The notes: generated from the sequence alone by a model not told the origin. A DNA stretch of 63,775 nt, filler included, from Neolecta irregularis DAH-3 (GCA_001929475.1; 10 parts of 10 records of this genome joined end to end with filler, not necessarily neighbours in it), one strand, 5' to 3'. Positions 8,434 through 63,775 are shown, counted from the whole stretch's first letter. Program-made: numbers and translations.

Positions 8434-8533
8434 NNNNNNNNNNNNNNNNNNNNNNNNNNNNNNNNNNNNNNNNNNNNTTAATTAATTAANNNNNNNNNNN
8501 NNNNNNNNNNNNNNNNNNNNNNNNNNNNNNNNN
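8434..8533. other. Artificial contig spacer (also at 11600-11699, 35113-35212, 48657-48756, 51162-51261, 52344-52443, 54312-54411, 57003-57102, 62590-62689)
   Basis: Identical N44-TTAATTAATTAA-N44 linker with stops in all six frames. Confidence 0.98.
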
Positions 8534-11500: not shown

Positions 11501-11599
11501 TTGTTGAACTGCACAAGAAAGGATCATTTCCGTGGGAATCGGTCGTTGCTACCATCGACGGGATTGAGACCCAAATATCATACCATGATTGGAATGATA
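8534..11599 (+). CDS. GDB1: Glycogen debranching enzyme, partial at both ends
   Basis: GFRIDNCHSTP, AELFTGSEEMD, DCSHDNE, RCWGRDVFISLRG, NCGTWMDKMG. Confidence 0.95.
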
Positions 11600-11908
11600 N
11601 NNNNNNNNNNNNNNNNNNNNNNNNNNNNNNNNNNNNNNNNNNNTTAATTAATTAANNNNNNNNNNNNNNNNNNNNNNNNNNNNNNNNNNNNNNNNNNNNA
11701 AGACTGTTGACCAGAGGTACCATACAAATTATGCCGAGTGAGAACCCTTTGGTCCTGCAAATCCAAGGGAGCTGACATTGTGCAGATCGCACCCAGTTTC
11801 AACATTTAATAGATAGTTATTTGTTTGTATGAATACTGATGATACAATATTTATGCTCGATTTTCTTTGTGGCGGCTTGTCCATAATCTCAACTACTTTA
11901 CTAATCGC

Positions 11909-16800: not shown

Positions 16801-17712
16801 CTTCGTAACTGCATGGATGTCCTTGTACTCGCACTTTCTTGCGTATTCGCAGGTACCGGCGACCTGGATCTCCTTCGACGCCTTCGCAAGTTTCATGGCC
16901 GAACGGACACAGACACTAATTATGGCAACCACATGGCATCACATATGGCTCTTGGGATCCTGTTTCTCCGTGGAGGCGAAAGTACTCTCTCTACTTCAAA
17001 CCTTGCAATAGCAGCTCTGCTCTGTTCTTTGTATTCCCAATTCCCGATCGCAACGAACGACAATAAGGCTCATCTACAAGCTTTTCGTCATTTGTGGGTC
17101 CTTGCTGCCGAATTCAGATGTCTTCATACACAAGATGAGAATGGTGAGACATCTATTTCTTGTGCAATCGCATTTCGAAATGGCACATCACAGAGAGTCG
17201 TCACGCCATGCCTTCTTCCAATACTCGATGAGATTGATCGAATTCATGTAGACGACCGATATCACTGGCCGGTGAATATCAAATTTGAAGATGACACGCT
17301 AGAAAAGCTACGGAAAGGCGGAATTGTCAAATTGTCACGTAGAACTGGCCCGAGTCGTAATGTGTTTGAGGAGTTTGCAGAGCAGAGGGCTGAACAAGGT
17401 GAAAGTATTTTGAACTCGCTGCGGGATAGATTCGTTAGTAAAGGCTGTAAATGTTTATCAAAGATGACCATGCTGATACTAGATTTTCCTTCTGACGAGT
17501 CATTAGAAGATGCTTTTTCTGGAAATATCCTTGACACAAAGGCTGGGTTGCATCATTCCCTCAATTGTGGAAGTACCGAAGCTGTTTTATGGCCTCTTAA
17601 ACTTGCATTGGATCAAGCCCATCGGCTCCGAAGTAGACCATTGCTTAAGGATTTCATCGAAAAACTACATCTTGGGGTTTGGATGATAGAGAGAAAATCC
17701 TCAGTAACATAG
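13810..17712 (+). CDS. APC1: Anaphase-promoting complex subunit 1 (Apc1/Cut4); start approximate
   Basis: PC-repeat motifs HAGFLLGLGVNGHL, QTAAILGLGLLY, YGNHMASHMALGILFL, HLQAFRHLWVLA. Confidence 0.92.
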
Positions 17713-30189: not shown

Positions 30190-32766
30190 ATGTTCTATAC
30201 TCAAATATGACTATTGTTCTCAAGGAACAGTACCACATGCGACGAATCAAGCTTGAATGGCGGTAATTTACTGTCTGACGTCGGATTTACAGAGTTTCAT
30301 TAGATGGGCCGCCACCTCCACCAAAGTGAACCTCTGTTACGAAACATTCCCCGCTCTTTTCTAGATTTAATTATCAAATCCAATGGCTGCTCGTATATCT
30401 TATTTATCAGAGCCTGTGTTGATTCTTTACAGCTCTCTACCACAGTGATCCCACAATCAAGCCTACTTCAATATTTTCCCCCGAACAATGGGAAACTTTA
30501 CTTGCAATATGTGATACCTTCATTGCACCGTTGGGACAAGATGAAATCCAAAAGTTGTTGCAAGAAACCCATTCAAATGCTGTCAAAGAGAGGAAAGAGC
30601 TGGTCGTTGCTTTCTTACAAGAAAAGGCCACTGATTATCCCGGCTTTAAGGAAAAATTAGATCGTATCCTGTCAAACAATATTCAACCCTCAAAGTTGCG
30701 ACAAATTCGATTTGTCTTGAGTCTGCTGAGGTATCCAGAACTCCTAGATTTTTTGAGCTGAATATATCAAAGTAGTCGATTTGGCGCTGTTCTAACAGGC
30801 CATATTACTCCGATTCATCAGCTAAATCGTGCACAGAGAGAATGCGTTCTTCAGTCGTGGACGAAATCGCCTTTACTGTCTTTGCGAACTTTATTCAGTT
30901 CATTGTCCAGGCTCTCGAGGTTGGGATACATTTCATGTTCCGAAGTAGCAATGCAAGCTATCGGGTATCCCCTCACAGATCCAGATTCAAACCATCCGAC
31001 TCGCTTCCAAGCGAAGAGATTTCACGATTTCATGTTCTTAGACATCAAAGGTGAAACAGCTGAACTGCACACAGAGGTCGTTATTGTTGGAAGTGGATCC
31101 GGAGGCGGTGTCGTGGCTGCCATATTGGCCAAAGCAGGGAGAAAGATGATTGTTATTGAAAAGGGAAAATATCACCCTCAGGAGACATTACCACTTTCTG
31201 AGACGGAAGCAAAAGAAAATCTGTTTGAGGCTGGAGGCGCTCTAATGAGTGACGACGGCTGTGTTTCGATACTAGCTGGATCTACGTGGGGAGGAGGCTC
31301 CGCGAGTATCCTAATCCAACGATAAAATGCTGAAATACAGTCAACTGGAGTACAAGTCTCCAGCCTCAAAGTTACGTACGCGACGAATGGGCTCGAGAAT
31401 ATCCTTTTTTCAATGAACTTGCATTCCAGGAATCACTTGACTTTGTCTGCAAAAGAATGGGATGTAGCACGAAACATATGAAGCATAATAAAATGAACCA
31501 CGCACTCATTGAAGGATCTAGAAAACTCGGGTTTCCATATTGCGACAATCCTCAGAATACTGGAGATGCTGAACATTCTTGTGGATATTGTGGGTATGCT
31601 CAGCTTGCAATAATTTTACAGACCTCTAGGTACGGATGTCGATATGCCGAGAAACAAAGTAGTAATGTCAGTTGGCTGGTCGATGCTGCTTCCAATGCTC
31701 AGTTTCTCCAAAAGACACATGTCGAGAAAGTGATTATGAAAGGGAACCGCGCGATTGGTGTTGAAGCGCTTGTAAATGGGCAAACCAAGCTGAGAGTTTT
31801 TGCAGATGTGGTAGTACTTGCGGGTGGTGCTATCAATACCCCGGCAGTACTATTGAGATCTGCTGTCAAGAATAAGAACATTGGCAAAAATTTGACATTA
31901 CATCCAGTGTCAACTGTCTTTGGCCATTATTACGACGAAGATACCAAGCCTTGGGAAGGAGCTATCCTGACAGCTGTAATGATTCCGTTTAATTTTCAAT
32001 GTCATCTTACTTGTCTCAGTCTTCGCAAATTTCTGAACGCAGAGTTTTAGGATGGGGTGCCAAATTAGAAGTGCAGTGGAAGTGAGTATAGCTCACAAAT
32101 GGAACCTGACAATGTTTTAGTATTCCTGGTCTTGCTGCTCTAAATGCTCCCTGGCGATCAGGCTATCAGGTTAAACGGAATATGCTATACTGGAATCAGT
32201 CGGTTGCCTATTCCTCCCGAGCCCGCGAGAGAGATCCCGGCTACGTCTATATCGACAAACAAAACAAACTTCCTCGAATCTGTTATACTCTTTCTTCTTT
32301 TGACTGCGACAGTATTCTCGATGGAGTCCTCAGACTGTGTGACATTGTCGTTACGGCTGGTGCGAATGAGGTTTTTACAGGATGTCTCGATGTTGAAATT
32401 TATAAAACTACGGAGCGTGGTATCGCGGATCCGAGTTATAAGAACTGGAAAGAGAGTGTACGAACCGCTGGCATTATTCCTGGTCGTTCCACGATTGGTT
32501 CCGCTCACCAAATGTCGAGTTGTCGCATGGGTAAGGATCCTCGAAACTCGGTCGTCGACGATCACGGTCGGGTTCATGGATACCAGAGATTGTATATTGC
32601 CGACTCGAGTGTTTTACCGAGCGCGTCTGGTGTTAATCCAATGGTAATTCACCACTTGAATTATGTTTAATGAGGTTTCTAGATCTCAACTATGGGCTTG
32701 GCACACTATATCTCCTTGAAACTGATCGAGGATATGAAAAGTATGAATGCACTTTCTTCTCTATGA
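30190..32766 (+). CDS. Long-chain fatty alcohol oxidase (GMC oxidoreductase); start approximate
   Basis: VVIVGSGSGGGV, IEKG, LAGSTWGGG..VNWS, IGKNLTLHP, SAHQMSSCRMG, SASGVNPM. Confidence 0.9.
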
Positions 32767-35020: not shown

Positions 35021-35212
35021 TATAATATTGCAATGGAACTGGGTACTTGAAATAGCTGATAATGACACTCTTGCTGTATGCGGATTTTTGGAATGGAATG
35101 GAATGGAATGGANNNNNNNNNNNNNNNNNNNNNNNNNNNNNNNNNNNNNNNNNNNNTTAATTAATTAANNNNNNNNNNNNNNNNNNNNNNNNNNNNNNNN
35201 NNNNNNNNNNNN

Positions 35213-36616: not shown

Positions 36617-37572
36617 GGTAATGGCTACTACGCAAAATAAACATACTCCAGTTAAACAGTGCGGACAAATACATTATCAACGTGAAGCTTATTGCACTGT
36701 TGAAGGACTTCTTTCCTTGGAAGGTGGGGAGAGAGGCAATCCTTTGAGGGTTTAAGGTTTTTTTGTGACTGTTCACAGCACGTGACATTGAGTCATTGAA
36801 AGAGTGATCCCTTGATACGAGTTCTAGTAGAATCTTCTACATCCTTTCTATCATCAGCCCTTTCACGAGACATAGGGCTATAATAAAAGGAACCGGAGAA
36901 ATCTGTAGTGGCATAGCAGAAGTCTCATTACCTTCGTCGTTTGTACCAAGACTCCAGTCTCTTTCATAACTTTCCTCAAACCATGGTTCTGGAATGAATG
37001 AGTCCAGGTGTGTGAAATATATTTCATCTCGAGATAGACCATGAAGGAAAATCGGTAGGGTGATGCTTTAGGGAAATTACAATATTAGGAGGAATTTTGA
37101 TTTCGTTGTAACTGGTGGAAGCTCTCCGCCGGAGCCAATGGCAGTGTGTCCTCTTCTAGTGCATGCAAATAAGCCAACGAGACCAGACTAGGTCTGTTTA
37201 TATCTGCAAGTGTTGAATGGAAGGAAACTCAACGCTCCCCGTTCCTGTAAAGAGTGACCTATTTAGAAAAGGATAAATATACGGGAAAACTATATACAGA
37301 GAAATAGGAGTGACCATTGCTTGGTGCTTATCATGTGCTTGATGGTGGGTGGTGCTTGAGATTAGGCAACTCCATCAATTTTTCCGGTACGAGTTTAGGC
37401 TGAATGATGCCCCAATCTGCGGCTTCCACTCTCGGCTATTTGGAAGAAATAGCACCAGATAAGGCTTCCGGCTAGCTCACCACTGGTATTGCTATTTTTG
37501 TTGTGACGCAAATCAACTCTCATGCGTCTATAAAAGCTGATTCCCCGTCCAAGAAAAAGCCGCCCGATCATC

Positions 37573-38133
37573 ATGAAGTCAATCATTGCTGCTCTTATTT
37601 TATCAACCAGCCTCACAATCGCTCTTCCAGAACCAGACAATGGATCCGACAACGCTTCAATTCCTGGACCACTTTTCCATCTTCAAACCCACAGTTCCGA
37701 GTCAGAATACGATAGTCTCTTCATCTCCTTATCTCACATCGGTTCTCTCCTTTATGTCGGCAATGTAACAAAGGTTCCTTTGGAGGCGTCAAATTTCACA
37801 TCCAACTGCCCGGATCATACACTTTCTGGGGTCATCCACATGGCTGGCAACGACATCGAGGCCCTTGGAGCTTCTACCAATTATCAAGATGACGGCACCA
37901 ACATCACTCCATTGTATTTTGATTCTAGCCATGGCAAACCGGGTTCGAATTCATGGGGATTTGATTGCGACAATTATTTAACCTTTAATGGATCATCTAC
38001 CAATTTCTCTTTTTGCAGTTCTACCCTACATTATGAAACAAAGCAGTATTGGGTCCTAAATGTACAGACACAAGAAGGTACCCCGACGAACGACCAATGC
38101 CACAGCGTTACTTTACAAGCAGTCTTCGATTGA
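37573..38133 (+). CDS. Small secreted Cys-containing protein, intronless, 186 aa
   Basis: Signal-peptide-like MKSIIAALILSTSLTIA; 4 Cys; several N-x-S/T sites. Confidence 0.75.
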   Translation: MKSIIAALILSTSLTIALPEPDNGSDNASIPGPLFHLQTHSSESEYDSLFISLSHIGSLLYVGNVTKVPLEASNFTSNCPDHTLSGVIHMAGNDIEALGASTNYQDDGTNITPLYFDSSHGKPGSNSWGFDCDNYLTFNGSSTNFSFCSSTLHYETKQYWVLNVQTQEGTPTNDQCHSVTLQAVFD

Positions 38134-44443: not shown

Positions 44444-47400
44444 ATGCAGCAATATCCACCAAGAACGCAATTTAGGCCCGGACAAACTCAAAACCATACC
44501 CGTCCATATATTCAGAGTCCTCCGCGTCACGTCTCGCGGCATAACGGCTCAAACCCTTCTGGTCCTATTCAAGGATCATTACCTCTAAACGAGGGCCATT
44601 ATCCAGCACAAAAATATCCAAATTCCAAAGACCGGCAGAGAAACAATTCTCGAACACCAGTGTCTGCTCCCTCAAAGCACATGATGATTAATCAAGATAA
44701 TGCATTTCCTGCATTTCCAGGTAGGCTATCTGAGACGTCTCTAAGCTCACCCCGCTAGGCTACGAGGATGGAAAGGGGCCTCGGAAAGGTAACCACTCTA
44801 CCTCGCCCGATTTATGCCGTCTAGGTGGGCCACATCGAAACATGAGCAGACATGAAGATTGTGGAAATGAAGGGAGGCATGAAACAGCTGAACGCCCTGA
44901 TAGGATGCAACCAACAGCTGCTGGGCAGCAGCATCTAAAATATCATACTTCAAGGAACCCTGGGGAGGGCCGTCGCGAGCAAGACCGTCAATATTCGGTT
45001 TGTTGATATCAAAATTCCTTTTAATAACAAAAGTGCAGGTACCAATGGACTGCCAATATTACGACCAGACGATGGCATCTGCCCAAGAATTAGACCGGGG
45101 AGTAAGACGCCTTCGAATGACGGATAATGAGGTATTCCAAGACAACTCACATCCCCAGAAGCAAAATCCACGGGCAAATTTTCAAGAACGAGCGTTTCAG
45201 CAAGAGCATCACCGGGATGGTTATGGATATGATGAGTATCAAAGCTATCCGCAGCATCATGAAGGCGAAACTATCAACAATGCTTATTATGGCCAACCAG
45301 ATGAACAGTATCCACAACAACTTCCGCCGCCTATGAGAGAAGAGCATCGGCCTGTCTTGCACACACACGAAGACTTTTCCTCAATAAAATACCCTCCCCC
45401 TATTCCTTCAAAAATAATGGAATACCCTCCTCAGATATCTGGCCCTTCCAGAGCAAATGCAAACTTCAGTCGCCCAAACTATGGTCGAGACGACGTGCCT
45501 CTAGAACATGGTTATGGGAATTACACTCCTTCGCCAGATTTACGTCCATCAGAACCACATTCCCACCCGAACGAGTCTAGACCTCGAACCGCTGGTGGCT
45601 CCATACGTCCATCGCGGCAAGATTGGCCAGATCATCATATTCCAAATCCAGGACAGCATTATCACCCCACGAATGAATATAACAACCAGTTTTATCCGGA
45701 GCATTTGCACCTGTCCTCCGGTAATCACTCGCCTCCGCTGCACAAACAACACCCATATGATGGTCATCCGGACTACACAACTCAATATCGGCACGAAAAC
45801 AGCTATTTTCCTGAGCGATATGATACTCAAAGACCTCCGTATAATGCTCCTCATGTAGGCGGTGCATATTCAGGGGAAGTCCGTCATGATTTGCCCCTGA
45901 AACACCCTTATCATCCTTCTCAAGAGGATTATCAAAATTCGAACTTTCAATCTCCAAGTCCTCCTCAGTTTTCCATGACAGCTCCACCTTCTCACCAAGT
46001 TCCACCTGTTCATCCCCCTCCGATTCGTATTGGTCAATTGCCAAAATCTCAGCCCAAGCCTAGATTAGACCCCCATCAGCAGAGATCTCTGATCAGTCAA
46101 AATGCTTCACCTCATCCTGCCCCACAGAGACATCATTCCGGAACGTCATCGAAATCCAAAGATTCTCTCCTACCTCCTCAGCCTGTTGCAATTCCCCCTC
46201 CAGTTACGAAGCAAGAGCTCGCCGACTTGAACGAAAGAGTTAGAGTTACTAACGACGAAGGGCTTATGTTAACCTATGCCAAAAAATTGGTTGAAGCTGC
46301 TATTGTCTTGGCAGATGATGGAGGTCGAGCCGATGACAAGCAAATTCGTAGGAACCGAGAGAACTATACCACTGAAGCTCAGAGACTTGTCAAAAGACTT
46401 GTTTCACATGTGAATAACTTTTGGGCCTTGTAATACTGACGCTATAGATTGGTAATAAACCGTATCCCAAAGCTATGTTTTTCCTGGCGAATTGCCATGG
46501 AAATGGCCAGATGGGTTTACAGATCGACCACGAGAAAGCGTTTCATTTATACCATTCTGCAGCTAAGCTTCAGCATGCTGCCTCTGCATATCGAATGGCA
46601 GTTTGTTATGAAGTTGGCGCTGGGACCAAGAAAGATCTAGCAAAAGCTATTACCGCATATCGCCAAGCCGCATCTCTGGGCGATACTGCATCATTGTACA
46701 AATTGGGGATGATTTCACTTAATGGTCTTCTTAACCAAGAAAGAGATTTTTCAACGGCAGTATCATGGCTTACGAAGGCCGCTAGTCAAGCTGACATCAA
46801 TAATCCACATGCGCTACATGAGATGGGACTGCTCTTCGAGAGACCTGATGCAAGCAAATTTGGCCTTCAACATAATGAAAAGAAAGCTTTTAAACATTTT
46901 ATGGAGGCTGCGAAGCTATACTATGCCCCTGCTATGTTCAAATTAGGATGTTGTTTCGAGTATGGCAGTCTGGGCTGTCCGATGGACGCAAAACGGAGTG
47001 TTGCATGGTATACACGAGCGGGTACATTTCATTTGCATTTCATTTGCTGATTTTCCAGCCGAGAAAGGCGACTCGGAAAGCGAGCTAGCTCTGAGCGGAT
47101 GGTATCTTACAGGTGCAGATTGCTTAAAACAAAGCGATACAGAAGCATATTTATGGGCAAGAAAAGCTGCTGAGCAAGGTTTTCAATGTATTCAAAAGAT
47201 TTATGCTAATAGTCAGGCCTCCCTAAAGCTGAATTTGCAGTTGGATACTACACCGAGGTTGGTATTGGTTGTCAGTCAGATCTCGAGCAGGCGAAGAAGT
47301 GGTATGTAAGAGCAGCAAGTGAGCATGCCACTTTTCGTGCCCTCTGTTGAAAGTTAGGTCAACAGCAGAAGGATGCAAAAGACCGTCTCGCAGAGCTAAA

Positions 47401-48656: not shown

Positions 48657-48890
48657 NNNNNNNNNNNNNNNNNNNNNNNNNNNNNNNNNNNNNNNNNNNN
48701 TTAATTAATTAANNNNNNNNNNNNNNNNNNNNNNNNNNNNNNNNNNNNNNNNNNNNCATGCTTGCTAAACGCAGCAAACTCTTGATACAAACTTTAATTT
48801 TTACCAGGTATCAACCGGTCTGTATTTAGACGGAATACAGAGATTGAAAAAGACGGAGGTTAATGGAGAAACCCCAGATTGAAGAAATCA

Positions 48891-51161
48891 TCATAAAACA
48901 CTGTTAACAGCAACACCCTGGACAACATTTTCGCATGGCCAAACAACAGAAACAACATCCCACATACTCTTGACGAACTGGACCTGTAAATCGGCAATGA
49001 CTTGTTCAGGAACATCACCAAAATACTCTGCACGGTTTCGTTCTGGGAGAATCAAGAGTCGACAGCCGGCACGATGTGCCCCGAGGACTTTTTCCTTGAT
49101 TCCACCTACGGGAAGGACTTGTCCTCGCAATGTGATTTCGCCAGTCATGGCGATGGTAGAATCTACGCTTTTCCCCGAGAACAATGAGATGAAAGCAAGA
49201 GTCATTGCGATACCCGCGCTCGGCCCATCTTTTGCAATAGCACCATCGGGACAATGTAAATGGACATCACGATCTTTCAAGAGATTGTCAGAAGACAAAG
49301 CCGTCAAATGAAGTTGAAAAGCGTGGGATTTAACCCAAGAAAGCGCACAAAGAGCCGATTCTTCAATGACTTTTCCGAGATTTCCGGTCATTCGGAGGAC
49401 TCCGGAACCAGGCATGGAAGTGGATTCAATGAAGAGAATTCCTCCTGTACCGGGAGCCATGTAAGCAAGACCAGTAACGACTCCAGGCCGATTACTCCGT
49501 TCTGTGATTTCAAGGGTATATTTCTCGATTCCGAGGATTTTTGGGATATCGTCGACGGTGATAGTTGTTGATGAGGCATTTGGATTTTCAGTTGATTCGA
49601 CTGCTATATATCGACATATTGCCGCAATTTGTCGTTCAAGACTACGAANNNNNNNNNNTTGTTGATGAGGCATTTAGATTTTCAGTTGATTCGACTGCTA
49701 TATATCGACATATTGCCGCAATTTGTCGTTCAAGACTACGAACACCGGCTTCGCGAGTGTACTCTGTGGCGATTTTCATCAGCGCATCATCCTCGATGGA
49801 TAACCTTTCTAGTCCATTTTCTTTTACCTGTTTAGAGACAAGGTGTTGTTTAGCGATATGGAGTTTTTCGTGGTATGTGTAGCCGGATAGGTGAATTACT
49901 TCCATTCGATCTAATAAAGGTGCTGAAATAGTATCGAGCGAATTAGCGGTGGCGATGAAGAGGACGCGCGATAAATCCACAGGAACGTTGATGTAATGAT
50001 CTGTAAAGGAAAAGTTTTGTTCAGGGTCAAGGACTTCGAGCATTGCAGCGGAAGGATCTCCGTGGAAATTGTGAACAGAGAGTTTGTCAACCTGTAAAGT
50101 CAGACTCAAAGAGAGATGATTGTGCCTCGTCCAGAAGCAAAACAGGGTTGCAAACTTGTATTTTTCGTAAACCTTGGACGATGACTCCTGGCATGGCGCC
50201 AACGTATGTTCGTCGATGGCCTCTTATTTCTGCCTCGTCGCGGACGCCACCAAGGCTGATTCTTAAAAACTTGCGGCCAATGCTTTTTGCAATACTCTTG
50301 GCAAGACTGGTTTTCCCGGTGCCTGGGGGGCCGACGAGGAGTAAGATGGGAGCTTTGTCGACGGAATTTGAGTTTGTGGCTTTTTTGAGTCGTAGAACAG
50401 CGAGATATTCAAGTAGGCGTTTCTTGACCTTTTCTAAACCGTAGTGATCTGCGTCGAGTTGTTCGCGGGCGCGGGAGACTGTAGAAAGGTCGAGATTGTC
50501 GGATGTGGTGGTGTTCCAGGGAATCTCTGAGAGCGTTTCGAGGTAAGTTATGCAAACATTGTACTCGGGTTGTGTAGGATGCATTCTTCTGAGACGGGCC
50601 AATTCGCGGTGTGCGACCTTTGAGGCTAGATGTTAGTGCTAAAGGGTGAGGGAACCCTGCCTTGCTCAGACAAGTTTGCGGATTGCAGTTTCTTTTCCAG
50701 GAGGTCGAGGTCATCGCCGTCTTTGCCGTCTTTCTCGCCCAGTTCTGCGCGAATGGCATTGAGCTGTTGCCGGAGATAGTATTCTTTCTGCGATTTTGAG
50801 AGGTTTGCATCGACGGTGCTGGTGATCTTTTTGGAGAGGTTCAAGACGGTGACCTGGTGGCTGAGGATCTGGACCGCTTTGTCGAGGCGAGACTGGAGGG
50901 GTGTTTCGCGGAGGATCTCGAGTTTCTTTGCAAAGGGGGCGTCGAGGGAGCTGACGATGATGTCGCACAGACGGCCAGCATCGGGGGCGCCGGTGCGGGC
51001 TATGATCTGCTGGAGGCGGCTGGCGAGGGCGGCCGGGAGTTTGGGCGACCTTGGGGCAGCGAGCAGCTCGAGCGAGAGCTGCTTGAGCGAGGCGAGGAGG
51101 GCGAGCGCCGCGGGGTTGTGCGGATCGACGGCCTCTGCGGGGATCAGCGCGAGCGGGCGGG
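48891..51161 (-). CDS. Lon protease, peroxisomal (LONP2)-type, 5' truncated
   Basis: [58 protein letters not shown]. Confidence 0.9.
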
Positions 51162-51261
51162 NNNNNNNNNNNNNNNNNNNNNNNNNNNNNNNNNNNNNNN
51201 NNNNNTTAATTAATTAANNNNNNNNNNNNNNNNNNNNNNNNNNNNNNNNNNNNNNNNNNNN

Positions 51262-52343: not shown

Positions 52344-52443
52344 NNNNNNNNNNNNNNNNNNNNNNNNNNNNNNNNNNNNNNNNNNNNTTAATTAATTAAN
52401 NNNNNNNNNNNNNNNNNNNNNNNNNNNNNNNNNNNNNNNNNNN

Positions 52444-54311
52444 GCCTAAACTTCTCTAAAGCCTTTCTAATTGCGAACAATTCTTTATCATGAGTTGTCC
52501 AGTTAAGTTGATGTATGTTGAGTTTCTTCTACATGTACATGACTGGGTGTTCTAATTTGTCATCCCCCACTTGTGACAGTACTTCCCCAATTCCTATTGA
52601 TAAGGTATCGCAGGTTAGTTCCGAGGGTTTCCTCAGGTCATGTCTTGCAAGTAGTGGCAGAGAGATTAGTGCCTGTTTTAATTTCTGGAAGGCTGCCTTT
52701 TGTGGTTCCTCCCATTTCCATGCTTGCTCTTTTCGAGTTAGCTCTGAGAGGGGTGCTGACATTGTCGCAAAGTTAGGAATAAAACATTAATAAAAACCGA
52801 CCATGCCCAGGAAAGCCTGGGTCTCTTTAATATTTGTCGGCTCTTTCTATTCCATAACTGAGGTGATCTTTGCATCCTGATGCTCAATTCCCTTTTGAGA
52901 GATTTTGAACCCCACCTATTCGATAACCTTTTTCTTGAATTCACATTTCTTTATCTTCGTGAATAACTTCTTTTCACATAGCCTTTGTAAAATTAGTTCG
53001 ATATCCTTGACATGCTGAGATTGTGACTCTGAGAAAATCAGTAATTCATCCATAAAAACATTACATCACCAGTCTAACCCCACTAATGCCCTGTTCATCA
53101 TCTGCATAAATGTAGCCAGTGCCTTGGCCAACCCAAATGGTAAAACTTTAAATTCAAAGTGTCCCATTTTTGTTTTGAAAGCAGAGAAAGGGATCGTGTC
53201 TGGGTGTAATCTCTGTTGAAAGTATCTGGATGCCAAATCCAGTTTCGAGAACCATCCTGCATTTCCAATCTGGTCTAGCAGTTCATTAATCCTAGGGAGT
53301 GCTGTATTGTTCTTTAGTGTATTGCTGTTTATGTCTTGATAATAGATACATATCCACAACTCGCCTGATTTTTTCTTCACAAACAAACAGACTGCCCCAT
53401 ACGGTGACATACTGTGTTGAATAAATCCTCACTTCAGCAAACCTTCAATTTCCTCCCTCATTGCCACTTCTTCTGCGATCGATAGTTGAGGGATAGGTCT
53501 GTTCCAAGGTAGTCTAGCCAGGTCTAGTAATGCAATATGATGGTCTTCTTCCCTCTTTGGGGGGAAGGGGAATTTTTCATTGAACACATCTTCATACTCT
53601 GTCAACAGGTCCCTCATTCCACTCGATAGTTGGTTTTTATCTTCCAGTGGTTGAATTTCTTTGGCCACTGCCAGCAAAGGTTCATCCAAGTCGACTATTT
53701 CAGCCAGATTAAAGGTCATAACCTGATTATGCACGGAATGGGTAACCAGATCATCCCCTGCAACCTTGCACATATTCCNNNNNNNNNNCGGCCACTGCCA
53801 GCAAAGGTTCATCCAAGTCGACTATTTCAGCCAGATTACAGGTCATAACCTGATTATGCACGGAATGGGTAACCAGATCATCCCCTGCAACCTTGCACAT
53901 ATTCCTGTGATAATCGATTACCTGTTGAAACCTTTCATGTCATTTCTTTCCCAGGAGCATGTCATATGCTCCCAGGTCTGCAACTTCGAATGAATCCATA
54001 AATGAGAGTTAGCCATGATTTGATGGAATAGAGGCCATGGCAAAGACTAGTGCCTGGGGTTGTGGTTTGACTTGGTTGTCGGCTTTATCAGCCATGACAA
54101 CCTTCACCGACTTCACAGTAAGCTTAGCTTCTAATCCATGTTCATCAACGAATTTTCTTGCAATGAAATTGTGAGTTGTGCCATCATCTTTTAATGCAAT
54201 GGCCTCCACCTATTGCCTCTTTTGACCAATTGTACAGGGGAATTTGATCAGGCCTTTGCCCGATAATGCGACGTTCACAATTTCAAGCATTGGAGAAGTT
54301 TTTGCTGAAGT
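52444..54311 (-). mobile_element. Degenerate Ty3/Gypsy pol (protease, RT, RNase H)
   Basis: Protease-like LKDDGTTHNF, SPYGAVCLFVKKK, WFSKLDL, LPFGL, FMDELLIFS, LTCD..IGIGEVLSQ; stops and frameshifts. Confidence 0.92.
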
Positions 54312-55689
54312 NNNNNNNNNNNNNNNNNNNNNNNNNNNNNNNNNNNNNNNNNNNNTTAATTAATTAANNNNNNNNNNNNNNNNNNNNNNNNNNNNNNNNN
54401 NNNNNNNNNNNAGTTTCGGTAACTTCGCATAACTCGGTTAGTCGTTATATCGCATCCGCGTTATCTCGCCTACAACGTTCACTGCAAATTCTGGAACTTT
54501 CAGTGAAAGTTCTGTATAAGTATCTTTATATTCAAACACTGTTCACTGCTTGCTCTCCACAATCCCCCCTCACTGTCCCCTGCCACCTGCCTCATCCCCT
54601 GGACTTGACCGCTTGCTCCCTCTAGCCACCTTGCCTGCGCGCTCCCTGCTCCCTTTCATCAGTTGCTGCCGTGCTGGACGACGAGCTGTGTACCTTGACC
54701 TCCAATTTGCCGCTGTAGATCAGCCTCGAGATGCATCTCAAAGACCTCGTCTCCCAGCGGCAGGACGACGTCAACCTTGCCTTGCGCCACGGCAAACCTA
54801 ATTGACTATCTGTGACTGACCGATTATCAGCAAGACGATGAGCTTCTGTGCTGCTGTCCGCTGTAAGTAACTATATACTTCTAGATACACAATTATTGCC
54901 TTGCCCTCTATGACAGGTCTGTAACGTTGTATGTTACACTTCCTGCCCTATAGGCGAAATCGTATTAGTCTCTATAGAACTTAGCCCTGCGGAGTGCAAG
55001 AGTATCTCAAGGTCTTGGGGTACAGTGCGGCAATAGGGACTTAGTAACAGCTTATCGGTATCTGGAAAAAGAACGAGATGTCTATTTCCTACCTAAGGGC
55101 TGGCTTATGTAGATCAGACAATGGCGACCAAGAAAACATTTATTTTTATTGTTATCCTTTCATGACTACTGCATGACGCCTCAAAAAAAAAGAGAGAAGC
55201 AGATAAATTCCAATGCAGATGCTCCGAATCATACATATATGGGTGACCATATGCATATCCACTCCCGACGGACATGGGTCTGATGTTGTTTCCGGCGTGG
55301 AGGATCTCTGGCCTCTGCTGCCTGGCACTTTGCCAGGCGCTGGCGGTGGACGTACTCCTCGACGGTGGAGGGTGCGCGGGGTCGCCGGAGCGGTTGGGTC
55401 CCAGTGTCTCGATGTGGATTTTGCGCTGCGACGGGTGCACGGCCAGCGACAGCGGTTTGTTCTGGGTCGGCAGGACTGAAGAGCCACAGCTAGAGGGCTG
55501 CCATCCAGTCACGGGCAGCAAACGGCTGGCGCAGATGAGGCGGTGGTACTGGAAGATGCTGCTGTGGTGGTCGAGCGTGAGGTTGTCCAGCGGGGCACGC
55601 ATGGCGGCATAGCGGTCACGGGCACCAGCGGCACTGGCAAGCTCGGCAGGAAGCGGCGTAGGCTGCATATCAGTGCGCCTGAGGGACAA

Positions 55690-56190: not shown

Positions 56191-57102
56191 CGCGAAGAGC
56201 GACAGTTAAGTGGCGGCTATGGCGGGGCTGGGCAGGGAGGCCTTTGTGGGGGTGAGGGTGGCCATTGGTAGAGGCGGGGGCTGGAGCTGGCCTTCCCATA
56301 CCACACTATAGGAGACAGAATTTGACCCCTGATACTGAGTTCTCATGCCACAGCACGCAGGGAGGCGGTGAGGATAAGGGAGGAGGGATGGGAAGGGGAG
56401 GAGAGTGGGTCGAAGGAGGAGATGGGGGAGACTCTGGGAGGGAGGACTATGAAAAGGAGGGAGAGGTGAAATGGGTAGTAGAAGGAGGAGGCATTCGAGT
56501 AGATATAGTTTGGCTGGTCTGGGTAGTCGTCTGTGGAGGAGTAGAGGCCGTAGTCTCTGGGTTTGACAAAGATCCGTGGGGGCTCAAGATAGGAGTGATC
56601 TGTTTCCTTAAGGTAGGTCTGCATGTGCAGCGGGAGATCGAGGGCGTGGTCGTGGCAGGAAAGGAGTTCCGAAAAACAAGGGAAGGAGTCTGGGGGGGAG
56701 TCTGTCTGCGCCGAAAAGTGGGACAGACCACTCGGGGCGCAGTGATCAACGAGTTCGATAAGCCTCCTCATTTCTTTTACATTGAGATCGTTCGTCAGCT
56801 ATTTCAGCGATCCTGTAGAAGGGCGCGAGATTCTAGACTCTGGTCTGGAGAGTAGGTCGTGGCGGTCGCTGTAGCGCGGGGCGGGGTAGGCCTGGACGAT
56901 GTTGAGGCTGTGGACCTTGGTGGACCTGGACTCGCTGGCGGAGGCACCGAAGGAGGAGGAGCGGCGGGTCCAGTTCAGGGGCAGGGGCGAGCCGTTGTAG
57001 TCNNNNNNNNNNNNNNNNNNNNNNNNNNNNNNNNNNNNNNNNNNNNTTAATTAATTAANNNNNNNNNNNNNNNNNNNNNNNNNNNNNNNNNNNNNNNNNN
57101 NN

Positions 57103-57440
57103 TTCTCTGAAGCTCTCAGACAAGGTGCTGAAGTCTACGCCCAACTCAAATCTCTTACTACGAAAAAGCATGGAGTTTCCGCTAAAACCGTCGGCGACGA
57201 AGGCGGTGTTGTTCCGAACATTGCTACCGCTCAGGAAGCTCTCGATCTGATTACAGGCGCTATCGAAGCAGCTGGATATACAGGACAAATCAAGATTGCC
57301 ATGGACGTCGCTTCATCCGAATTCTACAAGGAAGGAAAATGACTTGGTCTTTAAAAATCCCGACTCCGATAAGACTAAATGGGTCACCAGCAAGGAACTG
57401 GCCCATATTTACCTTGGACTTGTTGAAAAATATCCCATTG
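57103..57440 (+). pseudogene. Enolase fragment, downstream part
   Basis: [12 protein letters not shown]...[11 protein letters not shown]...[17 protein letters not shown], then a frameshift/stop before DLVFKNP; ends at KYPI. Confidence 0.9.
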
Positions 57441-57720
57441 AACTAAAAACATTTACAACATGATACATTGTGAATCGTGGGACTTCAAAATTAGATTCTG
57501 CCCCCACATTAATACGTCATGTGCAGAGCGCTATTTTTCATTCGACGAGTTTGGTACAAATCCTTCGACATGAATTTAGATGGATGTTTTTTGTAATTTC
57601 GTCACTCAATCAGCTTGCTACAAAAGAGCAAGCCTGGAATTTATGTATGTCATCAAAGCAGCGATACGGTAATTACAAAACAAATCAGGGTTTGATCAAA
57701 GGGAACTGAAAACACAACAA

Positions 57721-60700
57721 TTATGACTTAGTTATTCCCTGATCATTCGCAAGGACTTTCGCCATATACTTTTTCATCATGTAGAGGAACTCGACAGGGT
57801 AATGGTTGTAAAGGAACTCGACAGTGTCGCTGCGTCTCTCTTCTTCCTGCACACCTCGTGCTTCTTCTTCGGTATATGGTGGGTCTGGTGGCGAATCTTG
57901 CATTACTAGCATAATATCCATACCAAGCAAGATATTTGAATCCAATCCAAGAACGCCAAGCTTTGAGTTATAAATCGGCATATATTGATACTCCATCTTC
58001 GCCGGGTGAATGCCCGGAAATTTCCAACTTGACATTATCCTTCTTAGTTGATGGTCAATTGCCGAAAGGGTTTCTTGTGGAATGCGATCCCCCCTACCTA
58101 TAATAGATGTAATTCCAGTGATGAGGCAACTCCTGACTAGGAGTATGGGCTGATGTTGAGTCTCTATTTTGGGTATCCAAAAAAAGAGTATGTCTTTCGG
58201 GGGCGTATCAGGGTCCCAGAGAAAATCCGACGATGGGAAATAATTTTCAGAACCATTTTCCTGGTAGTTGCTATTTCCAAAGTCGAGTTCATTTGCGTCA
58301 AGGAAAAGAACCATCGTCTTGATCTGCGCTGAACTATGAGCAAACTGAATCTTCGCGAAGCGATCTATGATCTTCGCAGGAGTTTCAGCTCGAGGGTTTG
58401 ATAATGTTGAATATAACTTTCTGTATTCCTGTGGAATGGACGATGCTTTCGGGATTTTGATCTTGGGTAGGTCAGTCGGGTTTGTAATAACCCTCAGTTC
58501 TTTCTTTAAGTCACCATATAGCGCCCTGAAACTCCCTCCCAGAGATGTCTGGTCGATGGATGTCAAAGAGCTTTGCATTGTCTTATGACCCATCGACTTT
58601 CTAATAGCCTCCGGTTTTTTCGTTGACTTGACATACAATTTCAACATCTCATTAAAATCATCAGCCTTGTCATTTTTCTGTTTCTTAGTATTCTTTTGGG
58701 GTGTTTTGGGTTTCCCAACAGAAGCGGGCTTAGTCGAGGAATTTTGCGGTTTCAAGAGATCATGTGGCGCATCGACATTCACGGAGGATATCAAAGAGCT
58801 TTGCAATCTTGTCTTTGGCTTTGACGACACTGAAGAAGATAATGTTTTTGTAGATTCTTGAAGTCTACTTTGATCATTTTTGCGCGATGCGAGTCTAGTT
58901 TCTTCAGCCAATAACTTCTCAACCAACGAATTCTCTGGTCTCATGACATTATCGAGATCATGTGGCGCGTTTGCTTCCGTGGATGATATCAAAGACCTTT
59001 GAAATCTTGGCTTTGATGACTCTGGAGAAGACAATTTTTGTGCAGGTTTTTGAACTCCACTTTCATTATGTGATTTGGGTGGAATTATTCCAGCCGATGA
59101 GATATACTCAGACAGGGGAGGGGCGCCAGAATGCTTCTCGTTATTTCTGGATAGGTCTGAAGTATCGGTATTTGAAAGTGTCTTGGAAATCGCAGCTTGT
59201 GAGACATCCTTATTTGCAAAGGTGCCTTTCTTGACTTTCTTTGGCACATGAATTTGATCGTGAACATCCTTGTTTGCAAATGCGACTTTCTTTGTGACTT
59301 TGATATTCTTGGGCATAATTTGATCGTGATCATCCTTGCGCTTGTAATCACTTGCTGCGGAATTCGAAGTACTAATAGAAGAAACACTTTCAGCGATATT
59401 TTCATTATTCATATCGTTGTTGTCATTCGTCAAAGATTTTGAGGGCGGGTCTACTTCAACATGAGTGACGACTTTCGGGAGCGGATTCGTTAATTCTTTC
59501 AAATTGAAATTCTTTCTTGGATATTTCGGGGGGCTAGCAAGTATTCCACTCGACTGGAGATTGACATCACCGAGTTTAGACGCTTTTGGCTCTTCTATTT
59601 TAGTATTGTCATTTGGAGGATTTGTAATCGACGAGGAGGAACTTTTCCCTGGAACTTTGGCGTGAAGTTTAAGGGACGGCTCTTTCTCACTATTATCATT
59701 TCGACTTTTAGCAGGTTTTCTTTTTGCAGAAGATGATGAACCAGGATGAAATTGGTTTGACTTGAAGACCTGGTCACGTGGTACCTCGACAGGATCTTTG
59801 CCTTTTCTTAAAAGCCTGAGTCTGTCATCCGATAATATATCCGAATCACCAGAACTGAGACCAATCTGATCGGAAATTATCGATTTTGAATGGGATTCTG
59901 GAGAGTGGAAAGCCGTAAAATCTGGGGTTGAGGGCACTTCAGACAGATATCTGGTTGAGGACGAATCGGACAGATCCTTAGTTGGAGGCAATCCAGTCAT
60001 GTCCTTTGTTCGATGTGCATCAGGTGCAAACCTTTTATGTGAGTTTTCAAGTATTATAGGTACACATACGAAAATTGTCCAAAGTACGAAATGTGCCGGG
60101 ACTTTTTATTGTGAAATAATCGATCCTCAGGTGTGATATCGCTGGGTTTGGGTATATAGGAAAGTATCATGCAACGCGAGAGAGCGAACCACGGATCTCT
60201 TTGTGCTGCAATAACGTCCCTTGACAACTGAAAAGCACCACAACCATCTACGTGTTAGTAAATCTTGCGGGGTTAGGTGCTTCTTACCTCTACCAAGACA
60301 AGCTTCAGCACAAGAATCGTGATCATAGGAGTCATGAATTTCGAACAATCCAGACTTTATAGCTTCCTGGTCGTCTTTGGACACAACCACAAGCAGCTCA
60401 GAGGGAATAATTTCGAAAAGGTCTTTAACCATCACTTGATCAACGCTAGAATCTGTCATAACATCCTTGGAACGCTTGTATTGCGCAACATATTGCAGTT
60501 CTTTTGCCAACAGAAGACCATCAGAGCTCAAATGACGATCAGGAATGCTTGATAATAACTGACAATAAAAGGTTTGGAACCATGGAGTTGACTCATTGGA
60601 TAATATTTGGAAAGCTTCGCAAGATTCTGGACGATATCAGTGAAGTGTCTCAAATGGAAATGGTACTGGTTTTAATACACATTTGAGCACAGCGATCATG

Positions 60701-60850
60701 ATCCTGTGCTACCTGCATAAAGTCTATAAGAACCGCAGTGTTACTGGGGGAAAGAAGAGTATGAGATTCTTCATGAACAAAGAGGTCTTGTAGAAAGTGG
60801 GCTCCAGCTATCGAAATAACGGCGTAAAAGAACAAGAAGACGTGTCCCAT
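57721..60850 (-). CDS. About 1003-aa predicted secreted protein: signal peptide, 2 PAN/Apple-like repeats, S/K/P-rich linker, C-terminal globular domain
   Basis: Exons 60850-60667, 60626-60288, 60247-60070 and 60031-57721 join in frame through three 38-40-nt GT-AG introns with branch-like sites; total 3012 nt. Confidence 0.8.
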
Positions 60851-61344
60851 TGGGAGTTAGATGTGTTGACCTTGATCGTCACTCGGGTAGGCTTAGGTAG
60901 GCTAGTTGTCGTATAGCTTCAGACAACTACTTGTATTGAACCCGTTTATCGGAAACAGCTGTCTTTATATAGTATTTCTGTGGCGTTATTCTCTCCTATT
61001 CATTGGCTCCATGATGGATACCAAGTTTCATTCTCTGTCTTACTGCATCGAGTCCTATATACCCATTTGCGGCGTCCGATGCGGATCGCTCGTTAATGAC
61101 ATAGACAAGCTGTCTATCACCACTTGCATTTGTTGGCGGTTGGGGGTGTTCCTAGAGTACCTACAGCATTGTTTAGTGTCAGCGGAGAGAATTCAAACTG
61201 CGGAAATGACAAGGGAACGTCCATTTAATGCGTAGTGAGTCAAACATGTTCCACCTATGGCTGTCACCGAGACATTTTGACTACGGAATAGGGCTCGATA
61301 GTTGTGACTGCTGTTTACATCGAGTGAAACTGTCCATGGATAAA

Positions 61345-61399
61345 ATCCAGTCCATCCAGTCTATGGACCGGATGGACTGGATCACGTGATATAAACTAG
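61345..61399 (+). other. 38-bp imperfect palindrome followed by CACGTG and CTAG (Helitron 3'-end-like)
   Basis: ATCCAGTCCATCCAGTCTATGGACCGGATGGACTGGAT, then 13 nt, then CTAG|T. Confidence 0.5.
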
Positions 61400-61459
61400 T
61401 TAGGATTTACCCTGTTAGGAAAATAGCAGCTACAGGATCAATACAACATCCTTGATTTT

Positions 61460-61910
61460 CCATAACACCCTCACGTACCCGCCTCACAGCCCACCTCGCT
61501 TCACAGCCCATCTCTCCTCACAGCCCATCTCGCCTGTCTCTTCAGCCTTGCGCGCCTGTCTCGTGCCTCGCCACTTTCTCCCACCTTGCGCTCCTGCCTC
61601 TCCCACCTTACGCGCCTCGCCTTTCCCGTCCCTCCCACCTCTCCCCTCTTGCCCGTCCCTCCCGTCTCGCGCCCTCCTCCCATCTCAAGCTCATGTCTCG
61701 CCCAGCTCACGCGCCTCGCCAGCCCATCCCGCCCTCCCGTCCCTCCCTTCTCGCCGGCCCATCCCTCCCGCCGGTCCCGCCCACCTCACGCGCCTCCCTC
61801 CCATCTCTCCTGCCTCTACCGCCCGTCTCTCCCGCCTCTAGCCCCCATCTCTCCCGCCTCTTTTGCCTCTCTTCACACCCGTATCGCCCACCTCATGCTC
61901 CCGTTTCTCC
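61460..61910 (+). repeat. C/T-rich strand-skewed low-complexity repeat
   Basis: Recurring gcccatctctcc, ccctcccg and ctcacgcgcctc motifs. Confidence 0.7.
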
Positions 61911-61919
61911 TGTCTGTTT

Positions 61920-62589
61920 GGCCGAAACTGGCAATCACCAAAGTATTGTCCCATCTGGTGCTAGTACCGGTAGCGGTCATTCTATGCCTTTAAATTCTTA
62001 TAAATGCAGGTATATATGAAGCCTTTGAGCTTCGTGATAGAGATAAATCGAAATGGAGCGGGAAGGGTGGGATTCACATCATCGATAGGCACCAATTGAA
62101 GCACCTAGGTGTTATTAAAGCCATTTCTAGCCTGAACGATCTTATCGCCCCGCCCTTATCAAGGCCAATTTGGATATAAAGGACCAAATAACCGTTGATA
62201 AATTCCTGAATAAACTTGATGGATCCGACAATAAGTGTATTCGTCACTGTTCCCAGAAAAATCTTACAGGTAGCCAATCTTGGGGCCAATGCGATCCTAG
62301 GTGTCTCTATGGCGATTTGCAAAGCTGCAGCAGCTGAGAAGGGATTTCTTTGGCATATCATCTGCTTATGCTCTAGAAATTCCTTTATACACTCACATCA
62401 CAGAGCTGCTGGTTTAAACAAAGAATTTGTTCTTCCCGTTCCATGTTTTAATCTTGTCAAAGGAGGTATTCTGTTGATAAGTTACATGATGCTTGCTCTC
62501 TCCAGGTAGTCATGCTAGTGGAGTTTTGCCATTTCAAGAATTCATGATATTTCCGACGGAAGCGCCAACCTTCTCTGAAGCTCTCAGAC
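61920..62589 (+). pseudogene. Enolase fragment, upstream part, introns retained
   Basis: [74 protein letters not shown]; 1-nt frameshift near 62150. Confidence 0.9.
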
Positions 62590-62761
62590 NNNNNNNNNNN
62601 NNNNNNNNNNNNNNNNNNNNNNNNNNNNNNNNNTTAATTAATTAANNNNNNNNNNNNNNNNNNNNNNNNNNNNNNNNNNNNNNNNNNNNTTGAGTGGGAT
62701 CTTGGGTTAGTTGACCTTGAGATTGAATCTTGGGATTGGATACTATGACCAGTGGTATAGT

Positions 62762-63775
62762 AGATGGTTTTCGGGGCTGGCCAGTCCTTAATCGCTGAAA
62801 CCTTTGCTTCTTGTACCTCAACTCCTTGTGCTGATATCGTGAAACTGAGCCATTCAATAGTCTGTTTCTTGAACTCGCATTTCTTGAGTTTCAAGAAAAG
62901 CTGCGAACTCCTTAATCTTTCCAGAACATTATTTAAATTGATGGTATACTGCTCTTTACTTGGTGAAAAAACTAACATATCATCCATAAAGAAATTACAG
63001 CAGTAATCGAGTCCATTCAATGCGCAGTTCATCATTTGGATACATGTTGCCAGTGCATTTCCAAGTCCAAATGGTAGCACTAACCATTCAAAATGATCAA
63101 TAGAGGTCTTGAAGCCAGTCAANNNNNNNNNNGCTGCTCTTTACTTGGTGAAAAAACTAACATATCATCCATAAAGATATTACAGCAGTAATCGAGTCCA
63201 TTCAATGCGCAGTTCATCATTTGGATACATGTTGCCAGTGTATTTCCAAGTCCAAATGGTAGCACTAACCATTCAAAATGATCAATAGAGGTCTTGAAGC
63301 CAGTCAAAGGTATAGAATTTGTAGAGATTCTTTGCTGATAATATCCAGATGAAAAGTCGAGTTTCGAAAACCATTGTGCATTGCAGATGTGATCAATCAT
63401 CTCGTCGATCCTTGGCATTGCTGTTGAGTTCTTTTCAGTATTGCTGTTCAAATCGCAGTAATTAACACATATCCATAAGTTGCCAGATTTCTTCTTTGTA
63501 AACCTGCAGACTGCTCCATATTATGATGAACTTGGTCTGATAAATTTTCTCTCTACCAGATCTTTGATTTCTGTTCTTAACCATTTTTCTTCTAACACTG
63601 ACAATCTAGGCATTGGGCGATTTATTGGTCATCTCACCAGGTCAATGAGGAGGATTTCATGGTCTTCATCACATTTTGGGGGAAATGGGAACTGTTCATT
63701 GAAGACATCCTTATTCACATGCAGTACACTCTCCATTTCTGGTGAAATGGAAGCCTGCTGTTCACTGGTATTTAC
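62762..63775 (-). mobile_element. Second degenerate Ty3/Gypsy RT fragment, related to 52444-54311
   Basis: QFPFPPK, WFSKLDFSSGYYQQR, VLPFGLGN, FMDDMLVFS, LKLKKCEF, IKDWPAPK. Confidence 0.92.

Follow-up and report, generated by a model that had tools for sequence, protein, structure and literature searches.

An intact four-exon gene for a putatively secreted protein with twin four-cysteine, PAN/Apple-like repeats in an early-diverging ascomycete

The window considered here, i.e., the whole stretch of 63,775 bases that was analysed, does not represent one locus; it consists of ten scaffolds, and the spacers that link them read 44 N, TTAATTAATTAA, 44 N. Because the window is glued together in this way, arguments from neighbouring genes are limited to the scaffold at 57103-62589 (5487 bp), which carries the gene described below and, as its only true neighbour, a copy of an enolase gene. 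Searches of the whole window found no Rfam family (0) and no tRNA (ARAGORN, 0). The gene lies on the minus strand, and upon removal of three GT..AG introns of 40, 40 and 38 nt its four exons form a single frame of 1003 codons. The minus-strand reading frames from which it is assembled are 60650..60856, 60127..60636, 57721..60105 and the previously unlisted 60054..60254. The first-pass annotation had proposed that three entries of the ORF track and an unlisted exon splice into one uninterrupted frame, and all four could indeed be located and joined.

The features of the gene, all on the minus strand, are as follows. Exon 1 (60667..60850, 184 nt) begins with the ATG at 60850, which has an in-frame stop two codons to its 5' side (ORF 60650..60856), and encodes a signal-like stretch (residues 1-17, 60850-60800) together with one half of a four-cysteine core, the half that contains Cys54 and Cys58. 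It is followed by intron 1 (60627..60666; 40 nt, phase 1, GTAC..CCAG), in which a branch-like CTGAT site lies 9 nt ahead of the AG. Exon 2 (60288..60626, 339 nt) encodes the second half of the first core (Cys64, Cys83), an inter-repeat segment and the first half of a second core (Cys167, Cys171). Intron 2 (60248..60287; 40 nt, phase 1, GTAAG..TACTAAC..TAG) carries a TACTAAC branch site and interrupts the gene at a site homologous to that of intron 1. The second core is completed (Cys177, Cys200) by exon 3 (60070..60247, 178 nt), and intron 3 (60032..60069; 38 nt, phase 2, GTATGT..AAG) separates the latter from exon 4 (57721..60031, 2311 nt including the TAA stop at 57723-57721), which encodes a long spacer (residues 235-700, 60030-58633) and an orphan C-terminal region (residues 701-1003, 58632-57724). 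Up to introns 1 and 2 the exons add up to 184 and 523 nt, which places both 40-nt introns in phase 1, and these introns fall at residues 62 and 175, four residues past Cys58 and Cys171, respectively.

Introns of this size fit the genome. In the other genes of the window, a frame-joining intron could be found for six of nine pairs of adjacent ORFs, the top candidates measuring 35, 35, 77, 52, 38 and 38 nt, and the introns of the enolase copy, read by eye, measure 34-42 nt; a survey of the window's introns with a strict regular expression yielded 13 in all, too few for use. Removal of introns 1 and 2 fuses the first three frames, and a third intron is needed because this fused frame runs into a stop at 60056-60054. 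There are 44 candidate GT..AG pairs for intron 3 that leave the frame open through the stop at 57721, and 15 of them retain the second cysteine core. Among all candidates a GTATGT donor is found only at 60069, and its combination with the acceptor at 60032 gives an intron of 38 nt and a protein of 1003 residues; alternatives from the same acceptor measure 32, 56 or 71 nt. The branch-like site of intron 3 is CTCAC instead of CTRAY, and this is the least certain junction of the gene model. We regard the model as good overall, with intron 3 as its weakest point. The model also has an internal check, because both cysteine motifs arise only once the proposed introns are removed.

Codon usage likewise argues for a protein-coding gene. 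Using codon log-odds trained on 14 recognisable housekeeping ORFs, the spliced frame has the best log-likelihood of the three frames in each of 95 sliding windows (95/95), whereas the antisense frames all score negatively. The N-terminal module, the linker and the tail score +0.147, +0.146 and +0.122 bits per codon, as against 0.12-0.27 bits for six of the ORFs that belong to the training set itself. The GC content at third codon positions is 0.398 in the spliced gene and 0.399 in the training set. By an estimate from stop-codon frequency, the 794-codon open frame, at 42% GC, is no chance event. Thus, as had been claimed at first pass, the gene is intact, with 1003 codons free of stops over three introns and housekeeping-like codon usage throughout, and we conclude that it is a real, lineage-restricted protein-coding gene of an early-diverging ascomycete.

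Eight of the nine cysteines of the protein lie within residues 54-200, where they form two four-cysteine cores, viz., Cys54/58/64/83 in core 1 (60535..60703, minus strand; residues 50-92, spanning intron 1) and Cys167/171/177/200 in core 2 (60150..60324, minus strand; residues 163-207, spanning intron 2). The two cores could be aligned with a BLOSUM62 score of 98, as compared to 26.1 +/- 4.7 (maximum 49) in 500 shuffles, corresponding to a z of 15. A scan for the pattern C-x3-C-x(4-10)-C-x-[AS]-[FYW]-x(8-30)-C-x-[LIVMW] finds two instances in the spliced protein and none in the 122,078 residues of the unspliced six-frame translation; the pattern turns up in 3 of 20,000 shuffles of residues 1-240. 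Similarity between the repeats is confined to the 45-residue core, with 1201 of 2000 shuffles scoring as high as the upstream halves do, and at the DNA level introns 1 and 2 have nothing in common except their ends. The residue is kept at 18 of the 41 aligned codons of the cores, ten of these 18 being spelled by a different synonymous codon; dS between the repeats is saturated and dN is 0.61. These comparisons mark an old duplication of an exon-intron-exon unit, which predates the divergence of the two intron sequences, and selection has kept the motif residues of the two cores. The internal duplication with a 40-nt phase-1 intron at an equal position, which the first-pass annotation had described, is therefore borne out both by the alignment score and by the position of the introns.

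The order of cysteines in both cores (C-x3-C ... C ... C) is, at the level of the pattern, that of PAN/Apple domains (Pfam PF00024; PMC9024836), with disulfides that are putative. According to the same source, PAN/Apple domains share a helix that is tied by two conserved disulfides and mediate protein-protein and protein-carbohydrate contacts. The resemblance of the repeats extends to the helix-type C-x3-C, the succeeding C-x-A-F, the placement of the last cysteine before a hydrophobic residue, a complement of four cysteines that is enough for the two core disulfides, and the tandem arrangement of the modules after a signal-like N-terminus. The repeats differ from PAN/Apple domains in that their exon pieces match no HMM, in having no cysteine outside the core, and in being alike over 45 residues only. 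Short PAN_4 variants exist among PAN models. A Pfam search with the four exon pieces, in which each core is cut mid-domain by its intron, found no family at E<=1. A single-sequence AlphaFold prediction of exon 2, which is a half-domain fragment modelled without an alignment, consists of seven helices and no strands, with a mean pLDDT of 62.5 for the best model and 35.7-51.3 for the other four. With this model, Foldseek found no match at E<=0.001 among the 71 PDB entries listed at E<=10. A PAN fold would place strands in the region of exon 2, so that the model lends no support to a PAN sheet; for such a fragment, it constitutes weak evidence either way. The assignment of the repeats as PAN/Apple modules at first pass hence stands in one part, as C-x3-C-x5-C-x-A-F...C-x-[LI] fits the PAN/Apple pattern, and falls short in another, as Pfam had no match for the intron-cut pieces; PAN-likeness is plausible, and membership of the PAN family is unproven.

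Several known proteins offer parallels in layout. Both PAN domains of CBEL, a secreted lectin of Phytophthora, retain the four cysteines and the two bridges known from the PAN domain of HGF (PMC3532174); CBEL is a protein of 266-268 residues with two CBM1-PAN/Apple pairs and a 24-residue Pro/Thr hinge. The protein under study resembles CBEL, in a comparison of layout, in that two PAN-type modules stemming from an internal duplication come after a signal peptide (putative here), and in a likely non-catalytic binding role, but it has no CBM1, a basic spacer of ~470 residues and an additional C-terminal region. In the Wsc-type cell-wall sensors of fungi, the WSC domain (PF01822) has eight cysteines, four disulfides and a CGG motif (PMC9024836). 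Like these sensors, our protein has a putative N-terminal signal, a cysteine-rich module with a PAN/Apple-like core and a long serine-rich region, but there are four cysteines per repeat, no CGG and no convincing transmembrane segment. An assignment of the repeats to the WSC domain was rejected, given four rather than eight cysteines per repeat, no CGG and no WSC match of the exon pieces in Pfam. PMC9024836 also mentions a copper radical oxidase of fungi that carries a PAN/Apple domain. The general plan is similar, a fungal protein that is secreted (putatively so here) having a PAN-type module joined to a larger domain, but exon 4 matches neither an oxidase nor any other Pfam family, and the spacer is far longer here. 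We found no literature that links PAN domains and Taphrinomycotina.

A hydrophobic stretch of signal-like character occurs in the protein only at residues 1-20; it has a mean Kyte-Doolittle hydropathy of 1.6-1.7 and is followed by a small-x-small site, A-G-A; no Lys or Arg precedes the hydrophobic run, which consequently has no basic n-region. The N-terminal string quoted as signal-peptide-like at first pass is present as given, and its hydropathy and the site after it agree with that description. The spacer (residues 235-700) is rich in Ser (16%), Lys (11%) and Pro (7%), has a pI of 9.49, a Lys plus Arg content of 15% and a KKVKK cluster, and is made up of 62-78% disorder-promoting residues in each 50-residue block. 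The S/K/P-rich linker reported earlier, in which FANKDV and APHDL each occur twice, is thus confirmed, and it additionally contains three degenerate copies of a single unit of 66-76 residues (58558..59015, minus strand; spacing 228 and 198 nt). Polarity is lower in the last ~220-300 residues than in the linker, and the pI of residues ~780-1003 is 5.15. An AlphaFold prediction of the C-terminal 314 residues, made without an alignment, has a mean pLDDT of 33.2, with none of the 314 residues at 70 or above. Of the globular, unrecognised tail of ~220 residues that had been proposed, the lower polarity and the absence of a Pfam or PDB match hold, whereas the pLDDT of 33.2 is uninformative as to its globularity; it is from composition only that we infer a folded C-terminal domain. 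The layout of module, spacer and tail is as such borne out by composition and hydropathy.

No convincing transmembrane helix was seen in the protein, the hydropathy peaks at residues 861-881 (1.44) and 925-943 (1.66) containing an Arg and two Asp, respectively. The last 25 residues are polar, with no hydrophobic C-terminal tail of the GPI type, and no ER-retention signal is visible. A GPI- or membrane-anchored wall protein was considered and set aside on account of the polar C-terminus and the internal segments just described. A motif scan of the protein (HExxH, GxSxG, RGD, RxLR and others) gave only single, chance-level matches.

Relatives of the protein were sought at several levels. A word-indexed search with exon 4 against proteins of 422-1346 residues (8000 candidates scored) found none at E<=0.001, and for exon 2, which was compared in a similar way with 102 candidates among longer proteins, there was none at E<=0.01. 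HMMER with exon 4 over 1,835,955,588 representative proteins returned a single match, within the linker, at E=9.3e-5; this bacterial T/S/D-rich repeat protein (P0001) was judged to be a composition artefact and rejected as a relative. In the PDB, no sequence match with an E value under 0.14 was obtained for exons 2, 3 and 4 or for the 314 residues at the C-terminus. In agreement with the earlier description of the gene, no full-length match to a characterised family was found in Pfam (exon pieces), in the PDB or among the 1.84 billion representatives (exon 4). A transposon-encoded protein was rejected, as there is neither a Pfam family nor terminal repeats. Paralogues with different C-termini, which had been suggested as something to look for by tBLASTn, did not materialise within the 63.8-kb window, where the spliced protein finds only itself.

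The evolutionary position of the organism bears on how these searches are to be read. Its glycogen debranching enzyme, represented by a 559-residue exon on another scaffold, matches 2824 proteins at E<=1e-30, and among the matches listed the highest identity is that to Saitoella coloradoensis (58%), ahead of Orbilia and Pneumocystis (57% each) and Taphrina (54%). On the strength of these matches, a rust or another basidiomycete was rejected as the source. A tree of the window's sequence and 26 of the 120 listed matches, which were picked for taxonomic spread, the other 94 being left out, has the window standing alone on a long branch at the base of Ascomycota, a part of the tree that is not resolved. 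The organism is thus an ascomycete of early divergence, and the protein collections contain no close relative. Since even a strongly conserved enzyme reaches no more than 58% identity, orphan status carries little weight as evidence, and a fast-evolving secreted protein would escape detection at such a distance. Orphan secreted proteins are common in fungal genomes.

Based on these observations, we give about even credence to the reading that the gene encodes a secreted or wall-associated modular protein with a signal peptide, two minimal PAN/Apple-like modules, a flexible spacer and a C-terminal domain. The N-terminal hydrophobic stretch would be a cleaved signal peptide through which the protein enters the secretory pathway. 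With two disulfides in each four-cysteine core, like those of the PAN/Apple core, the repeats would make up a pair of small modules that bind a glycan or a protein surface. The basic, serine-rich disordered segment of ~470 residues would serve as a flexible spacer, and the C-terminal region of ~230-300 residues as a separate folded domain that is kept at the target by the binding modules. As neither a membrane-spanning segment nor a tail of the GPI type nor a signal for ER retention is visible, our best guess is that the protein is extracellular, either soluble or bound to the wall.

An intracellular protein is unlikely, though several features of the sequence agree with it. The hydrophobic run would then remain uncleaved, the basic K/S-rich disordered region would act inside the cell, for example in the nucleus, and the cores would be metal-binding or structural. 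The pI, the Lys plus Arg content and the KKVKK cluster of the spacer are of this kind, a lysine-rich basic spacer being more akin to nuclear disordered regions than to the Ser/Thr stalks of fungal wall proteins, and the missing basic n-region and the all-helical prediction for the exon 2 fragment point the same way. However, eight of the nine cysteines fall in two copies of a conserved pattern just after a hydrophobic N-terminus with a small-x-small site, and such a pattern in such a place is typical of secretory-pathway modules; moreover, the protein has no C-x2-C or His-rich pattern of a metal site.

A second alternative is connected with the structure of the scaffold. The enolase copy is split over its ends, on the plus strand, into a 5' part (61915..62589), which corresponds to about residues 33-178 of the yeast enzyme and has short introns as well as a break of the frame by 1 nt near 62152, and a 3' part (57103..57460), which corresponds to yeast residues 179-257 and then, in another frame, 259-291. 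Matches to the yeast enzyme were obtained for residues 75-102, 179-257 and, with a shift of frame, 259-291; the first ~30 residues are missing (read by eye), and homology ends at residue 291 of 436. A functional enolase was therefore rejected, there being no full frame of ~436 residues, nothing past residue 291 and two frame breaks. The breaks are probably real and not sequencing errors, because the long conserved exons found in other parts of the window show no interruption, and the copy is a truncated, frameshifted pseudogene. The claim that the neighbours of the gene are pseudogenes thus survives for its sole neighbour on the same scaffold and lapses for the rest of the window, which belongs to other scaffolds. 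A C-rich degenerate repeat of 9/13/22 nt (61460..61900) lies between the two head-to-head genes. The first 19 nt of the scaffold (57103..57121) are identical to its last 19 nt (62571-62589), so that the scaffold can be closed upon itself, the period being 5468 nt, and closure restores a continuous enolase reading over its ends. The closed path suggests a 5468-bp unit that is either circular or arrayed in tandem.

Accordingly, it may be asked whether the reading frame is a decaying or never-functional one on a repeated 5.5-kb unit that is open through recent origin and not through selection. The dead enolase copy on the same scaffold, the closure of that scaffold on itself and the failure of the searches to find a relative agree with such an origin. 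We nevertheless consider it quite improbable, given the 1003 stop-free codons across three introns, a codon usage that equals that of housekeeping exons throughout, and a motif that is conserved between repeats whose silent sites are saturated.

The first-pass annotation had favoured an effector translocated to a host, with a binding module, a spacer and a cargo that acts on or in the host cell. The modular, secreted-like layout and the restriction of the gene to one lineage would suit an effector, but the organism is a lone, unplaced branch at the base of Ascomycota and nothing shows that it has a host, no paralogue family is found within the window, and 110 kDa with a spacer of 470 residues is unlike the typical small fungal effector; the proposal is unsupported and, in our view, very doubtful. 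Least probable of all, and highly unlikely, is that there are two genes, a secreted twin-repeat protein of 240 residues (stop at 60056-60054) and a protein of ~759 residues from an ATG at 60000, for while the signals of intron 3 are the weakest of the gene (CTCAC and not CTRAY) and several alternative junctions are open, the distance from that stop to the following ATG is only ~54 nt, too short to accommodate a terminator and a promoter, and the GTATGT donor and the 38-nt length match the introns of this genome.

A more far-reaching form of the secreted-protein reading joins the two aspects of the scaffold, namely an amplified or circular 5468-bp unit and an intact, lineage-born secreted twin-PAN-type protein with a long basic spacer and a C-terminal domain of an unrepresented family or fold, where unrepresented means among the 1.84 billion representative proteins. 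We put this forward as a tentative and rather unlikely combination. If a secreted protein is indeed encoded here, it would be an unannotated one of 110 kDa from a barely sampled deep branch of Ascomycota, and the fungal repertoire would gain a minimal four-cysteine PAN/Apple module and an unplaced C-terminal domain; the finding touches no long-standing question. There are two lessons of method, viz., that prokaryote-style ORF tracks can conceal a cysteine motif that becomes visible after short introns are removed, and that, in a window pieced together from several scaffolds, gene neighbourhood is no safe basis for argument. The two 40-nt phase-1 introns at homologous sites also provide a clean textbook example of exon-intron duplication.

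The 5487-bp scaffold (57103-62589) that carries the four-exon gene on the minus strand also harbors, head-to-head with it, a plus-strand copy of enolase, which occupies 61915-62589 and 57103-57460. This copy is a pseudogene: short introns are retained, but the reading frame is broken twice, the first ~30 residues are missing and no enolase sequence follows residue 291 of the 436-residue yeast protein. The same 19 nt are present at both ends of the scaffold (57103-57121 and 62571-62589), and an uninterrupted enolase reading is regained upon joining these ends. Together, the end identity and the regained reading point to a closed path of 5468 bp, which could be a tandem array, a circular molecule or a loop in the assembly.

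A C-rich array of 440 nt (61460-61900), with degenerate units of 9, 13 and 22 nt, lies between the two head-to-head genes, and three of its reading frames are open, giving pseudo-ORFs rich in Pro and Ser. Close to the C-terminal end of the 1003-residue predicted secreted protein encoded by the four-exon gene, a short tandem duplication (57780-57827, minus strand) gives rise to two copies of the motif VEFLY.

The window is made up of ten scaffolds linked by spacers of the form N44-TTAATTAATTAA-N44 (8434-8533, 11600-11699, 35113-35212, 48657-48756, 51162-51261, 52344-52443, 54312-54411, 57003-57102 and 62590-62689), and it is therefore not a single genomic neighbourhood. At four of five ten-N gaps (9512-9521, 49649-49658, 53779-53788 and 63123-63132), the two 150-nt flanks have an identical stretch of 60 nt or more in common. 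These shared-flank gaps are contig overlaps left unmerged by scaffolding, which double a few codons, for example, within the Lon protease gene.

A Pfam family was found for 17 of 26 long ORFs and none for the other nine. Scaffolds 1-8 hold ordinary fungal housekeeping genes (for example, at 274-4982, 9919-11598, 14374-17709, 30762-32667, 46448-47047 and 50090-50632), and those recognised are Gcn1, glycogen debranching enzyme, APC1, GMC oxidoreductase, a Sel1-repeat protein and a Lon-type AAA protease. The last scaffold carries a reverse-transcriptase fragment (62691-63122, minus strand; Pfam RVT_1, E=5.6e-16). A 199-residue ORF (37534-38130, plus strand), for which Pfam gave no family, has a clear signal-like N-terminus and is a candidate for a further small secreted protein.
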